A DNA stretch of 64,000 nucleotides from Octopus vulgaris (Eukaryota): assembly GCA_951406725.2 (NCBI GenBank), contig OX597821.1:47306001-47370000 (forward strand). Direction: 5' to 3'. Of the stretch, positions 8,110 to 35,491 are shown in pieces. How positions within the stretch are numbered: the stretch's first letter is position 1; every line of letters begins with the position of its first letter. Position numbers and translations under genes: made by a program. A model generated the notes under the pieces. The model did no database searches, was not told where the DNA came from, and saw nothing but the letters and a program-made list of their open reading frames with translations.

Positions 8110-8184
8110 TTGCCTCAATAACTGATGAGATGCCGGACCAATTTTCCACCCCAAAATCCGAAACTCGGAGTCTTATTATGGCAA
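8110..8184 (+). ncRNA. Type I minimal hammerhead ribozyme motif (PLE-associated)
   Basis: TTGCCtcAATAA-CTGATGA-GAT..ATCc-GAAA-CTCGGAG-TC|TTATTatGGCAA. Intact core, stem I AATAA/TTATT plus TTGCC/GGCAA, near-palindromic stem III ACTCgGAGT, GUC site at 8170-8172. Confidence 0.75.
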
Positions 8185-8487
8185 CCGAATAACTGTCACA
8201 TATTATATGCACGTGTGTGTGTGTGTGTGTGTATATATATATATATATATATATATATATCTATACACACATGTATAAATCTCTCTCTCTCTCTCTCTCT
8301 CTATATATATATATATATATAGAGAGAGAGAGAGACACGCACACACACAATATATATATGTGTGTGTGTGTGTGTGTGTGTATATATATATATAAATATA
8401 TACACATACACACATATATATATATATATATATATATATATACACACACACACACACACGTGCATATAATATGTGACAGTTATTCGG

Positions 8488-8553
8488 TTGCCATAATAAG
8501 ACTCCGAGTTTCGGATTTTGAAAATTGGTCCGGCATCTCATCAGTATAGGCAA
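8488..8553 (-). ncRNA. Inverted second copy of the hammerhead motif, sense to the PLXDC transcript
   Basis: Minus strand TTGCCTATA-CTGATGA-GATGCCGGACCAATTTTCAAAATCC-GAAA-CTCGGAGTC|TTATTATGGCAA. Core intact; the stem I 5' strand has a small deletion. Confidence 0.6.
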
Positions 8554-10289
8554 TCAAAAATTGCTATGAAAATGACCGTTTAATGGTCAAGTCTTATTAT
8601 GACAACCAAATAATGTGTGTGTGTGTGTGTGTATATATATATATAAATATATACACATACACACATATATACATACAATGAGCTTCTTTTGGTTTCCATC
8701 AATCAAGTCTACTCACAAGACTTTAGTCAGCCCAGAGCTATAACTGAAGACATTGCCCAAGGTGTAACCAGTGAGAATGAACTCAAGAACACTATTTGGG
8801 AAGCAATCTTCTTATAATACAGGCATGCCTGCATCAATATAGACATATCTGTTTAACTCTGTGTGTGTGTGTGAGTGTAGTAACATTACTGGATAGCTCA
8901 TATTCAAAATGAAATGAGATTTCCTAACAATAAAGGAGAAACTCTAAAATACATTTTCATTTCAGCGAACATTTACATCTCATCTCTGTTAAAAGTTTAT
9001 CATTAATTATGTATCATAGTTTTCTCAAAGTTTACAAATACATACGTTTTTGCATCAAAAAAATCCTAAAGAAGGGAAGATCAACATTGTTTTTAATTCT
9101 AAAATATAATTAAATTATTTGTTTTCTTAGCTTTAGTAAACAGAAACCTAATGCTTGCAATGCCAAACACACTGAAAACAAAAGAAATACAAAGCTTATT
9201 AGAAAAACAAAATATAAATGAAGATTAGACTGCAGCTAAGAGTTCTAATGTTGGTTTTAAATAGTAAACAAATATTAAGTAGAGAATTATTGAAGAAGAA
9301 AACAGTTTAAATGGATGTTTCATGGTTTAGGTTTAGAATTTTTGTGCCATTTAATAAAACCAGATATTTTTATAACTACGAAACATTGATGAAATTTTTG
9401 CTATATCTCAATGTAATGTTGAAAAAAGAAAACCTTGCAAATTATGAAGCAAAAACAAAAAGATCCCTGTCATCATTCAATAAGACATCAAATTGAAATG
9501 CAATAATGCAAATAAAAAAAGAAACATATTGCAGTGTTAAAAAGAAGAAAATCCAAGGCAAATATTACATAATTAGTGAGTAACTAACAAGGAAATGATT
9601 AATTATACAACAAAAACTGAAAATATCAATAATGAGTCATAACAAAGTGAGTGATATTTTAAGTTTGGAAACCAAATAAAAGACTTGTATGATAATGCTA
9701 GAGTCCACATTAGCAATTATAACAGATTCAACCTCCACCAAAACATAATTATACAGAAAGCAATCCCAGAATAACTGAAAATAAAATAAAATATCAAGTA
9801 GAAAAAAAAGCATAAAACAGATTTTTATTTTATTTTTCTTTCTTATCTTATGTTTTTTCACTTTTTTTTTTTGTTTGTTTGTAATATATCACCAGGATAT
9901 TGGATGAGTTGGACAATATGAATTATCACTATAACTTTATAGATTCTGATTAGCAAATTAAAAATAAGAACAAAACAACAATATTAAAAAAAATATTTCA
10001 TTACTTAACATGAAAACTAACTACATAACAATTTAATTCAGAAAGCTCAGAAACAAAAAAGAAATTAAAATAAAATTTTTTACAAATAAAAGAAACAAAA
10101 TCATTAACAAGAAAAATAATCCAAATTTAACAAAGCAATCAAAACTTCTTTTCACTAACAAAACACAACATGCATATGCAAACAAGCATGTGTGTGTGTG
10201 CATACACACAAATATATAGGTAAGCACACACAGACATATACATACTGCTATTCAATATCAATACTGCTTCCATCACAAATATTTTTACA

Positions 10290-31813: not shown

Positions 31814-34800
31814 ATACTACATATGTAGAAAATTGGTGTGTGCTTGTTTGCGGCGTTGTTAGCTAACCCCACCCACATCGTTTTATTGGTTGTGATGAAA
31901 CTTGACACGTGAGTAGAACTCATGGCTGGAAACCTCATGACATACTTAGATTGTTGAAAAGAATCAACAATACGGCCCCTGGAAGGGTTCTTTATATCTA
32001 CCTCATATAACTAATTTATTTTTTAAAACATCCAAGGGAAATAACCCATAGCACCTGCACAATATTTTTTTTAAAACACTCACGGAAAATAACTAATAGC
32101 ACCTGCACTTACAGTTGTTAGTTTTTAATTAAGCGATCAATATTTGATTCTCATGATCAGCAAACCTAATTCTGCATTTCGCTACTCACAGTTTTGAACT
32201 GCTAAACCTTATTATTGCACTTTCTTGATGCATGTACACTTTCAATGCCCATAACTCCGATAATTCTGCATTTTTCCAGTTAAAATTTTTGATTCCAGAA
32301 CATATTTAATTAGTGTGTCCCAATACAATGAACTCATACTTTGAATGCTTAAAATTCTTAAAAAATGAAACCAAATTTCAACACTACTTTCAGTTGGGAC
32401 ACCCTGTATTGCTTATTCTTATTTTACAAATCATAATATTTATTGCTTATTTACAGTTCATACAACATTTTCATGAAACTAATTGAGCCATCGAATTTAG
32501 AGATATTTTACAGGTTTCATTGTTTATGTTGAAAATTCTGAAAATAATATTCATCATATTTGGTAATATATCTGACCTAGATAATAGATTTACATCAGAG
32601 TGATGGAAAATACACGTATAATAGAGAATAAGAGCCTCGAGAAGATGAAAGGCTTAATATATTTATGTAATACCCAATTTGCTTATGTGACACAATGTAT
32701 GTGTGCAGTGTGGTGATGTGGTAACAACCACAGGATTCCGCATTCATTTAAGCAAGTGTCTTGTATTATAGCCTCAGGTCGACCAAAGCCTTGTGAATGG
32801 ATTTAGTAGACAGAAACTGAAAGAAGCCTGTCATGTGTATAAATATATATATATAAATATATGTGTGTGTGTGTGTGTCTTAGTATGCGTGTTTGTCCTC
32901 CACCACTGCTTGACAACCAGTGTGTTTATGTCCCCATAATCTAGGGGCTTGGGCAAAGGAGTGATAGAAAAAGCATCAGGCTTAACAAAAGAATTCAGGG
33001 GTCAATTCATTTGACTGAAAGTTCTTAAAGGTGAAGCCCCAGCATGGCCGAAGTCTAATGCCCAAAACAAGTAGAAGATAACAGAAATACAATTCACCAA
33101 AATAGTTACAAATCTAATATTAGAGAATTTCCAGCACCTCATAAAAATCAAAAGTAAACAACTAGTGTCATACAAGTAATCAACACACAATTTCCAAAAG
33201 CGAGAAGGCAAATATTATTCTTTCTATTGTATAACATTAAAGACCGAATGTGTGTGTGTGCATGTGTGTTTATGTTATGTATATGTGTACACAGCATGTG
33301 TGTTTGTTTGCCTCTCTCTGCTGACAGAGCTAAATTTGACAGTAATATTCTGTCAGTATTGAATGAACTCACAAGACCACCACACTGAGGCAGCTTTCTG
33401 CTGCTTATTATAAGTATACGTGTTTCATATATAATACATATATGTGTATGTGTTTGTGTGATTTACACATGCAAACACACACAAACACAGATATCCGTAT
33501 GTGTATGTATGTATATATATATTTATATATACTGCTGATACTCCAGGCAAAAGTTTGAACTTCACAATTGTTTCGTAAGTCAGCGAAACCCTGACATGTC
33601 AAAACAAACACTGGTGTGTAACAAGGTCCTTCAACTCAGCAGACCCAGTCAAGCTGTCCAATCCAAAATCATCATGGAGAGTGCACTTTAAATGATGATG
33701 ATGTATTTAAATTTGATTATACAAACACATGCATATTATACAGCATTTGTATTGTGGCATGGCTTTATTAGCAAATTTAAAAAGATGAAAGACCTGTTAA
33801 ATTCACTTTGCATTTATTTCTTGAAGGCAGATGACACCAGTTTACATACATGACAAATATACAGCTTTCCTTCCCCCACTTAAACTAGGTTTTAATTCAT
33901 TCAGTTACAGTATTTCATCCTCCTCCTTCACCTTCCCATCCTCGCCTACTAAAGGGCAGGTGTGACCCTGTTGTCTTACTATACAGACTGATATATGTGA
34001 TCAACAAAAGCAATAAACCCCAAGTCGTGTAAGAACTTGTCGTTAACTTTCAAACAGTTGCAGCAAGACTATCACTGATTATGTCACATTTATAGAATGA
34101 ATATACTGATATATCACGAAATAAACAAAAATTAATGAACAGCTTTGTGGTTTTTTTAATTACTTAATATGGTTCTTGCATATAATTACGTCACTTTTAA
34201 CACATACACTCAGTTCTAGTCACTGGCCATACACACACACACATGCACACGTAGCCATGTGGTTTTAGGTTTAGTCCCACTGCAAGGCACTTTGGGCAAA
34301 TGTCTCCTACTATAGCTTTGGGACCAACAAAGCATTGAAAGTGGATTCGGTATATAGAAACTGAAAGAAGCCCATTGTATGTGTATATGTGTGATCCTTA
34401 TTTTGTTTAGAATAAATGTTTTTATATTTTTATACATCATATTCCTATCCTATCCTTTTTCCCTTTCACCCTCTCTCTGTATCCCCTCCACCTCTCTACA
34501 CTTCTGTTCCTGCCATTTGCCTTCCCCTTATTTCTCTGCTCTCTCTCTCTCTCTCTCTGTGCCCTCTATCACTTTTCTCCTGCCTACTACTGACACATGA
34601 CACAACCCATTTCACTGCTTCTCATCCTTTAGGATACTCCTCCTGGTGTTAACCACATTTTTGTCTCATGTCTGGCCCTAACACTGTATTCTGCTCATTT
34701 ATTTCAGTTTGTTCATATGTTCACATTTTGTCTCTCATTTGTTCTTATCTTTGTCCCTCATCCATCTAACGACAGTCTCCACTTCAATAGCATTTATTTC

Positions 34801-35140
34801 ATGTCTGTATGTTTACTTCCTGTAATGCATATTTGTTTATTCACTTTCTGCCATGTTTGGTCCCTTGTTTGTTGGCTTGCCATTTCCTGGCAGCTTCTTG
34901 CTGTCAGCACCATCAGGTGGGGGGGACAATATTATTGTTGAAGGCATGAAATTGTGTATGACCCTCTGGCCAATAACTAATGAGGATTTGATGACCTTCT
35001 GTGTCTAATTTCCATTTGTTTGTGGATTTATATGCTTTTTAACTTACTGAATGCACACACACACACACACATACATACGTTTATGAATTTGTGCTGAAAG
35101 ACTTCTGACATGAAACCATGTATTGAAACAGATACTGTTA

Positions 35141-35491
35141 TATTTTGGGATGGTCACCCCACCCACTGCCATATAAACACATGCACTATATATTTGCTTT
35201 TCTCTCATTTGTTATTGTTCTTGTTTTATCTCATGTCCATTGTCTGGAAATCTTTCATCACATATTTGTGACCTCTTCAGTAACCCTTTTCATCCACATG
35301 TATCTTCCTGCTCCACTTAGTCCACTCTGGATGGAAAAGGCCACTGAAGTGGTCACAGATGTGTGATGAAAGATTTCCAGACAAAGAGTGTAAGATAAAA
35401 TAAGAACAATAATAAATGAGTGAAGAACGAATATATAATGCATGTCTTTATTTGGCAAAAAAAAAAAGAAAAAAATTACCATCTCAAAATA
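35141..35491. repeat. ~350-bp fold-back with a hammerhead-like core in each arm
   Basis: TGTCTGGAAATCTTTCATCACATATTTGTGACCTCTTCAGT mirrors ACTGAAGTGGTCACAGATGTGTGATGAAAGATTTCCAGACA. Termini TATTTTGGGATGGT and ACCATCTCAAAATA. Confidence 0.85.

Follow-up and report, generated by a model that had tools for sequence, protein, structure and literature searches.

Mostly broken hammerhead motifs in and beyond an octopus PLXDC2-like gene, very probably the 3' ends of truncated Penelope-like insertions

The window analysed here comprises 64,000 nucleotides of Octopus vulgaris DNA (contig OX597821.1, 47,306,001 to 47,370,000; positions below are those of the window). An Octopus PLXDC2-like gene lies on its minus strand, identified by tblastn and by reading of the splice sites, which also define each exon listed below. 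Nine hammerhead motifs, designated A to I, span 8 to 35.4 kb of the window, and no motif of comparable score was found in 36-64 kb.

7952..8072, minus strand: inverted 5'-truncated 3' tail of a family-1 element, ending in (TA)n and adjoining A
8073..8212, plus strand: family-1 copy A (C3 8122, G12 8160, C17 8172), with an intact core and a decayed helix II; antisense to the host
8460..8614, minus strand: family-1 copy B (C3 8544, C17 8500), sense; core intact, deletions damaging helices I and II
12675..12773, minus strand: final coding exon of the PLXDC2-like gene; the stop codon is at 12675
13896..14014, minus strand: transmembrane exon of the PLXDC2-like gene
15095..15495 (approximate limits), minus strand: element C (C3 15463, C17 15368), intronic, sense; 3' tail and (TA)n flanks
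18199..18495 (approximate limits), minus strand: element D (C3 18407), intronic, sense; between microsatellites
25020..25059, minus strand: short internal exon of the PLXDC2-like gene
28303..28413, plus strand: motif E (C3 28311, C17 28404), antisense; core intact, helices decayed
28645..29207, no strand assigned: inverted pair of 3' tails related to that of element C, with no recognisable hammerhead
29422..29560, plus strand: family-1 copy G (C3 29459, U17 29510), antisense; helix II preserved
29684..29785, minus strand: motif F (C3 29769, G12 29706, C17 29697), intronic, sense
35167..35457, no strand assigned: head-to-head inverted pair H/I (H C3 35280, minus; I C3 35344, plus)
57423..57568, minus strand: PSI-domain exon of the PLXDC2-like gene
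60185-60280 and 63376-63480: further exons of the PLXDC2-like gene

The original prediction placed the motifs inside one gene. This is true of C, D, E, F, G, H and I, which are intronic, but not for A and B, which lie 4.1-4.6 kb past the stop codon, downstream of the coding region. Three AATAAA sites occur on the minus strand within 12001-13000, so the main PLXDC2-like mRNA may terminate well before B. Relative to the host transcript, five motifs are sense (B, C, D, F and H) and four are antisense, a ratio that gives no sign of selection. An open reading frame at 7043-7324 on the plus strand was considered as a convergent gene and set aside, as none of 73 candidates scored (weak evidence).

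All nine motifs are found at the places first named, with the minus-strand numbers marking the low (3') ends of the motifs rather than their C3 positions. The full CUGANGA/GAAA/UH core is present in five of them (A, B, E, F and H). Judged by sequence similarity, the nine motifs appear to derive from seven insertions of six families and not to be independent ribozymes. In self-BLAST, A and B form an inverted duplicate with 93% identity, in which B also carries part of the inverted tail, and G is 74% identical to both. H and I form an inverted pair with 79% identity. Besides family 1, inverted pairs occupy 28645-29207 and 35167-35457. In the former, 28645-28704 matches 29092-29147 at 92% identity, and 29119-29207 matches the tail of element C (15112-15208) at 76%.

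A defect in the core or a helix is seen in 8 of the 9 copies. The core is altered in C (G8A and A14G), G (G8U and A15.1G) and I (A9U). In motif D, a single CUGAUGA (C3 18407) can be joined to either of two 3' halves, both carrying a single defect: the first register has a broken cleavage site (G at 17 or one extra base), and the second carries G12U. Helix I of A is good (10/12 pairs), with helix II nearly absent (-1.4 kcal/mol); B has lost both helices next to the core; helix I of C consists of 4 weak pairs; and the helices of E are decayed. H and I keep the core boxes, a 6-bp helix II and a UC site, without helix I. Only F and the core-dead G have a well-formed helix I together with a well-formed helix II, leaving F as the sole copy with an intact core plus both helices. 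By constrained folding, the hammerhead-compatible fold of F lies 3.5 kcal/mol above the ensemble. An extra base follows A9 in E, H and I. The helix II arm measures 77 nt in C, 75 nt in E (as a region) and 56 nt in F, and helix II regions of 56-85 nt occur in C, E and F, and in D in one register. The predicted palindromic stem III is present in A and B (self-dimer energy -9.7 kcal/mol), G (-8.0), D (-6.8), C (-6.5) and F (-4.6, a 6-nt palindrome). It is absent from E, where helix III is non-palindromic, and from H/I: no palindrome pairing between copies was found for either (+0.8 and 0.0 kcal/mol, respectively). For B, folding predicts complete pairing with antisense A in a duplex of about 200 bp, with a pairing probability of about 1.0 over the core.

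Chance occurrence was assessed with 200 local dinucleotide shuffles and a descriptor written after the sites were seen. Without masking, microsatellite false matches stood in the top ranks, so the version with masked microsatellites was used. The expected excess over shuffled sequence is absent at scores of at least 10 (29 matches against a null mean of 24.7) and appears at scores of at least 22, with five matches (A, D, F, C and G) against 0.61 and only 2 of 200 shuffles reaching five. When intact cores alone are counted, A and F score at least 26, and none of 200 shuffles reaches two. The five best scores in the masked window all start at named sites, that of D coming from its second register and not the one originally read. 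B, E, H and I are not recovered by the descriptor in the masked window, and in a strict form F is the only match with zero core changes. The motifs are real and exceed chance at high scores, the best five being named sites. The Rfam hammerhead models proposed for the same purpose gave 0 matches in the window at gathering score; A reaches 19.9 bits against RF00163, under the cut-off of 34. F and H/I scanned singly against Rfam gave no hammerhead among 10 matches each, and an E-value scan of the window gave none among the 150 of 279 matches listed, where microsatellite-miRNA matches dominate. A general repeat search of the window returned microsatellites only.

Evidence at the level of a family comes only from family 1; for C, D, E, F and H/I there is a single insertion apiece. 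The family-1 variant table covers 8110-8172, was drawn from contigs aligned at 80% identity or more and is biased to contigs already matching at that level. Within this interval, 0/11 core positions are variant at a depth of at least 10%, compared with 16/52 others (Fisher one-sided p=0.028). In contigs from other loci, variation is seen among others at N7, at the centre of loop 3 and at position 17, which is mostly U in this family (84% of depth in the DNA run). The majority letters at 8153 and 8155, which are unlinked variants, re-form two helix II pairs that A has lost, and one compensatory A-U/G-C change in helix I separates A from G. Family 1 has a C bulge in the 3' strand of helix II. 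An ATG stands at the start of helix II, as in an anole Penelope-like element, followed in A by a stop within about 20 codons. A-to-I editing signal was not distinguishable from alleles in family-1 contigs, and scans for the family-1 hammerhead plus tail pattern gave 0 in metagenome contigs and 0 in viral contigs.

The surroundings of copy A display the anatomy of an insertion. The segment 8037-8072 is 92% identical to the reverse complement of 8168-8203, and contigs from other loci connect 8201-8205 to 8028-8037 on opposite strands, which indicates that the stretch from 8035 to 7952 continues the family-1 tail. Summed depth falls from 1.2 million over the 3' tail to about 9,000 over the hammerhead; the steepness of this 3'-to-5' fall is a qualitative hint of heavy 5' truncation, not a copy number. 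Read upstream from C3, elements A, C, D and G break off after 30-90 nt, where a microsatellite or inverted tail is met, and copies A, B and G begin within about 40-50 nt of C3.

The motifs are very probably type-I minimal hammerheads, mostly broken, that form the passive 3' ends of seven 5'-truncated Penelope-like insertions and do not act on the host gene. The core-specific conservation in family 1 argues for a Penelope-like origin, as does the inverted truncated tail that abuts A and ends in (TA)n, and the defects in nearly all copies point to neutral decay. On the model of published work, an active parent would carry the hammerhead in a pseudo-LTR and slowly cut tandem precursor RNA as a dimer via the palindromic helix III. 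Reverse transcription would begin near the 3' end, with (TA)n or other AT-rich DNA as the insertion target, and would usually halt early, leaving stubs of 100-400 bp, often with an inverted copy as displayed by family 1. Once inserted, the stubs would decay neutrally. Penelope-like elements (PLEs) make up 6.83% of the O. vulgaris genome in 190 families (2026 O. vulgaris repeat annotation), so the motif density here is ordinary; the delimited stubs total roughly 2.5-3 kb, or 4-5% of the window. A six-frame Pfam scan of 12.6-39 kb found no reverse transcriptase (RT) or GIY-YIG domain, the scan being insensitive enough to miss visible LINE fragments too, and the absence of such a reading frame is expected because the motif-linked stubs are short.

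Some families could instead be short non-autonomous elements, either SINE-like or monomers of non-LTR retrozymes that PLE proteins mobilise, rather than truncated PLEs. No remnants of open reading frames adjoin any motif, the starts of A, B and G are closely spaced from C3, and a 2026 preprint, in its accessible part, makes the case that the retrozymes of animals derive from PLEs and are non-autonomous (10.64898/2026.07.22.740005). Self-BLAST, however, gives no head-to-tail tandem units of motif-bearing repeats, the canonical 6-bp/4-bp helices with loop-loop contacts are absent, and truncation fits both the fall in depth and the inverted tail; we regard this origin as improbable. The original notion of a PLE/retrozyme-like population is accordingly kept for its Penelope-type minimal type-I hammerheads, several families and abundant repeats, and its retrozyme-like part is dropped for want of tandem units and canonical architecture. 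It is similarly unlikely that chance matches or hammerhead half-cores in AT-rich repeats, instead of descent from working ribozymes, account for the weaker motifs (E, H/I and possibly D in one of its registers). The descriptor misses E and H/I, both copies of H/I lack helix I, and the helix III of E does not favour self-dimers. Against this, H and I, at 79% identity, both retain the boxes, the UC site, a 6-bp helix II and the additional base that follows position 9, and are arranged as a PLE-type inverted pair, and the layout of E matches that of C and F.

The original prediction also held that cleavage could reduce gene output. For this, at least one sense copy (F in its intron, or B downstream of the stop) would have to cut PLXDC2-like RNA, alone or when paired in trans with a second transcript of its family, and so lower or reshape gene output. 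F keeps all core positions and its compatible fold lies close to the ensemble. In B the core is kept, and helix III could form a 3-bp monomer hairpin. Contigs spanning 6800-8007 and 6800-8025, matching at about 99% or more, come from two putative-RNA runs, and others lie over A, a pattern that would be compatible with a long 3' UTR running as far as B; one run (X1) reached only 215 nt of unique flank. Family-1 contigs from other loci are also present in these two runs. Word shares over the exon region are small (0.14-0.18) and are given no weight here. The account is nevertheless extremely doubtful. Metazoan minimal hammerheads show no monomer cleavage and low cleavage as dimers in the accessible part of PMC4209133, and PMC11167929, in its accessible part, reports no RNA-seq read ends where a PLE of the anole would be cleaved. 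F has no same-family partner in the window, and its one comparable cross-partner, C (-4.4 against -4.6 kcal/mol), lies 14 kb away with a dead core and a mismatched helix I arm. For B, the prediction is that its duplex with A keeps it locked, and the AATAAA sites may place the end of the main mRNA well before it. With core defects in C and D, and H without helix I, the proposed reduction is not supported, and neither is regulation of the PLXDC2-like gene by these motifs.

Cephalopods join the animals with Penelope-type hammerheads, a gain of modest importance, and the hammerhead plus tail provides a handle for classifying unlabelled octopus repeats. Among the papers searched, none links 'hammerhead ribozymes' and 'cephalopod', and ribozymes go unmentioned in both the text and the single supplementary file of the 2026 O. 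vulgaris repeat annotation. Judging by the long helix II arms, a class of hammerheads seems to be missing from present genomic counts. It is conceivable, though on balance doubtful, that the octopus holds about 10^4-10^5 such relics, including an undescribed long-arm form; if true, this would interest ribozyme specialists. Highly improbable is the larger combination, in which octopus hammerheads are among the densest known (possibly ~10^5 relics if the window is typical), with several long-arm families missed by standard descriptors and Rfam, and in which intact sense copies such as 29769(-) also cut pre-mRNAs in trans with transcripts of their own family. A regulatory role, if true, would matter much more, and is unsupported here.

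Host-adopted hammerheads, such as the amniote intronic HH9/HH10 and those in the rodent Clec2 3' UTR, are single-locus, conserved and monomer-competent. The octopus motifs resemble them in lying in introns or possibly a 3' UTR, some in sense orientation, but are decayed repeat copies. With metazoan non-LTR retrozymes, as far as the accessible parts of PMC7229834 and 10.64898/2026.07.22.740005 describe them, they share a type-I hammerhead in a short, non-coding, low-GC repeat; unlike those, they show no tandem 150-450 bp units and no canonical architecture, and the copies are mostly broken. Canonical EN+ PLEs (Penelope/Poseidon, Neptune, Nematis, Hydra), in the accessible parts of PMC8557442 and PMC11167929, likewise show 5' truncation, an inverted 5'-truncated copy at the 5' end, an optional 3' tail, AT-rich or (TA)n targets and a hammerhead near the 3' end. 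The octopus stubs, compared here without clade assignment, differ in having no RT or GIY-YIG sequence, and the extension past the end of copy A is about 80 nt, against the 30-40 bp described there. PLE minimal hammerheads have, in the accessible part of PMC4209133 (Cervera & De la Pena 2014), an extra base after A9, a long helix II and a palindromic helix III, and occur both as single copies dispersed in the genome and as pairs lying close together on opposite strands. The octopus motifs agree with these metazoan examples in type-I topology, a core-adjacent helix I of 4-5 bp, the palindromic helix III, the extra base (in three copies), several families per genome, and mostly solitary truncated copies with opposite-strand pairs 100-700 bp apart. 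They depart from them in the cephalopod host, the lack of a linked reading frame in these stubs, the bulged C and mostly U17 of family 1, and the length of helix II, which as a region takes up 56-85 nt in C, E, F and one register of D in place of 7-8 bp stems. Such long forms may already figure in the catalogue of dimer-cleaving variants by Lunse et al. (RNA Biol 14:1499), as cited in the accessible part of PMC6765202, and the supplementary figures of PMC4209133 may bear on them too. In conclusion, the octopus is a new host for a known element, with the long helix II arms as its one unusual trait.

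All nine hammerhead-like motifs named in the original prediction are present in the window, designated A to I.

Hammerhead-like motifs, placed by core residue C3 (hammerhead numbering, cleavage after position 17)
A, C3 8122, plus strand: beyond the stop codon; exact core
B, C3 8544, minus strand: beyond the stop codon; exact core
C, C3 15463, minus strand: intron between the 25-kb and 14-kb exons; G8A and A14G
D, C3 18407, minus strand: intron between the 25-kb and 14-kb exons; G at 17, or G12U
E, C3 28311, plus strand: large upstream intron; exact core
G, C3 29459, plus strand: large upstream intron; G8U and A15.1G
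F, C3 29769, minus strand: large upstream intron; exact core
H, C3 35280, minus strand: large upstream intron; exact core
I, C3 35344, plus strand: large upstream intron; A9U

Their supposed confinement to one gene holds for C, D, E, F, G, H and I, which are intronic; A and B sit beyond the stop codon, at a distance of 4.1-4.6 kb. The canonical core (CUGANGA / GAAA / UH) is exact in five of the nine (A, B, E, F, H) and altered in C, D, G and I. Self-comparison of the window identifies A and B as an inverted duplicate (93% identity) and H and I as an inverted pair (79%), with G 74% identical to A/B. Because A/B and H/I are inverted duplicates and G resembles A/B, the nine motifs are counted, by sequence similarity, as seven insertions from six families, A, B and G forming family 1. 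Motif D (18291-18415, minus strand) has a single CUGAUGA box and two alternative 3' halves. With either half, helix I and a palindromic helix III can form; the compact register carries G12U, the distant one a shifted cleavage site or G at position 17.

The window is AT-rich animal DNA with many microsatellites. The host is a PLXDC2-like gene on the minus strand, whose exon at 57423-57568 matches Octopus vulgaris plexin domain-containing protein 2 at 98-100%.

PLXDC2-like exons located by tblastn
63480-63376, minus strand: exon
60280-60185, minus strand: exon
57566-57423, minus strand: exon
25059-25020, minus strand: exon
14014-13896, minus strand: exon
12773-12675, minus strand: last exon, with stop

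The full form, with transmembrane segment and tail, is backed by an Argonauta homologue. The annotated model P0001 instead has its terminal exon at 50860-50804 (minus strand), predicting a protein without a transmembrane segment; this isoform would terminate upstream of all nine motifs.

Conservation of family 1 was read from contigs aligned to 6800-8205 at 80% identity or more. They come from four runs, of which one is probably DNA and the other three are taken, as a guess, for RNA. Between 8110 and 8172, variants at 10% depth or more fall on 0 of 11 core positions versus 16 of 52 others (p=0.028), the variants being unlinked and the contigs pre-selected by similarity. The variable positions include N7 (two alternative bases, in 25 and 27 contigs of the DNA run), the palindrome centre, and position 17, where 85 contigs (84% of depth) read U. 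The most frequent bases at 8153 (64 contigs) and 8155 (70 contigs) restore helix II pairs lost in A, and A and G differ by one compensatory change in helix I. On these sequence grounds, the pattern is that of a genuine hammerhead in a multi-copy family.

In predicted folding, F is the sole copy with helices I and II both formed beside an intact core, and its hammerhead-compatible fold lies 3.5 kcal/mol above the ensemble (A 11.8, B 14.7, E 12.1); H lies at 4.8 kcal/mol, yet without helix I. F is also the only match to a strict descriptor with zero core changes. A scored descriptor, drawn up once the sites were already known, gives 29 matches in the masked window, led by A, D (in its second, compact register), F, C and G, and misses B, E, H and I. 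Against 200 local dinucleotide shuffles of the microsatellite-masked window, five matches score at least 22 (null mean 0.61; five reached in 2/200 shuffles) and two intact-core matches score at least 26 (two reached in 0/200), while the low threshold shows no excess (29 versus 24.7 expected). Rfam returns no match in the window at gathering score; A reaches 19.9 bits against Hammerhead_1 (cut-off 34), and F and H/I, scanned singly, show no hammerhead among 10 Rfam matches each.

At the end of A (8201-8205), contigs join to 8028-8037 on the opposite strand, and therefore 7952-8072 (minus strand) is a second, inverted, 5'-truncated family 1 copy; it retains the 3' tail complete and terminates in (TA)n. 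Depth sums to 1.2 million on the tail, to about 9,000 on the hammerhead and to 47 on unique flank, a hint, depth not being copy number, that most family 1 copies end short of the ribozyme. An inverted pair of tails related to that of C occupies 28645-29207, and a tail related to that of D lies at 35877-35984. According to two papers, Penelope-like elements (PLEs) are recognised by loss of 5' sequence, by a truncated copy in inverse orientation at that end, by a tail that may or may not be present and by AT-rich target sites (PMC8557442; PMC11167929). Minimal type-I hammerheads are described by Cervera & De la Pena (PMC4209133) as numbering thousands per genome in several families, in which helix III is palindromic and A9 is followed by an extra base; copies are mostly solitary, probably from truncated PLEs, and some form opposite-strand pairs 100-700 bp apart. 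Because no RT/GIY-YIG gene is linked to any family (none adjoins the motifs, and an insensitive Pfam scan of 12.6-39 kb gave none), we infer membership from anatomy, which strongly suggests that family 1 is Penelope-like; by analogy, the remaining families probably are so too. Element stubs sum to about 4-5% of the window against 6.83% for PLEs genome-wide (191 Mb, 190 families; PMC13282606), and the local density is therefore ordinary.

In the putative parent element, the ribozyme would work as a dimer to cleave tandem RNA; insertion by EN/RT would then produce truncated ends, which would decay neutrally. A much less likely reading is that the sense copies regulate the host gene through RNA cleavage. 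The predicted four sense copies become five on our count (B, C, D, F, H), with four antisense. The cores of C and D are defective, and H is without helix I. In any transcript that spans both copies, B is predicted to be fully paired with antisense A (-420 kcal/mol over 701 nt, microsatellites included; probability of pairing in the core about 1.0). The 6-nt palindrome of F would have to pair with a second copy, and the window holds none of the same family; the F and C palindromes could pair (-4.4 kcal/mol), but their helix I arms mismatch. Regulation is further disfavoured by published work: minimal hammerheads did not cleave as monomers and cleaved poorly as dimers (PMC4209133), and in an anole PLE the cleavage site showed no RNA ends (PMC11167929).

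Contig coverage beyond the stop codon would fit a long 3' UTR: contigs from two guessed-RNA runs, of unproven strand and RNA origin, match 6800-8007 and 6800-8025 almost exactly, and others cover A. Against this, the third run covers only 215 nt of flank, and the stop codon is soon followed by AATAAA sites. Should transcription extend through 7952-8614, B and antisense A, together with the microsatellites mirrored around them, are predicted to form a near-perfect RNA duplex of about 200 bp past the stop. The octopus is a heavily editing animal, and the modelled duplex would be a likely ADAR substrate.

Other repeats occur in the window. A SINE-like multi-copy family with a structured GC-rich core lies at 161-652, 2311-2450, 21104-21519, 46503-46614 and 47746-47964; its copy at 246 (plus strand), with a mid-rank descriptor score of 18.4, was treated as unrelated to hammerheads. 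Further MITE-like or fold-back inverted repeats and palindromes (30820-31814, 43664-43861, 11961-12252, 46194-46398, 62958-63087) have arms of 67-100% identity and, read through, contain no visible hammerhead. A short repeat of very high depth at 6834-6880, within otherwise unique flank, also matches 2844-2888. Fragments at 39485-41799, 17122-17922 and 2911-3234 (minus strand) and 55952-56574 are, from an ORF list judged by eye, what we take to be decayed LINE-like or mariner-like coding sequence.

No paper joining hammerhead ribozymes with cephalopods was found in the literature searched, and combining hammerhead ribozyme, Penelope and octopus gave one work, mentioning octopus once; the cephalopod host looks unreported there. 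The element type itself is already established. The one apparently unusual trait of these motifs is the long helix II region, which spans 77 nt in C (-18.3 kcal/mol), 75 nt in E, 56 nt in F and, in one register, 85 nt in D.
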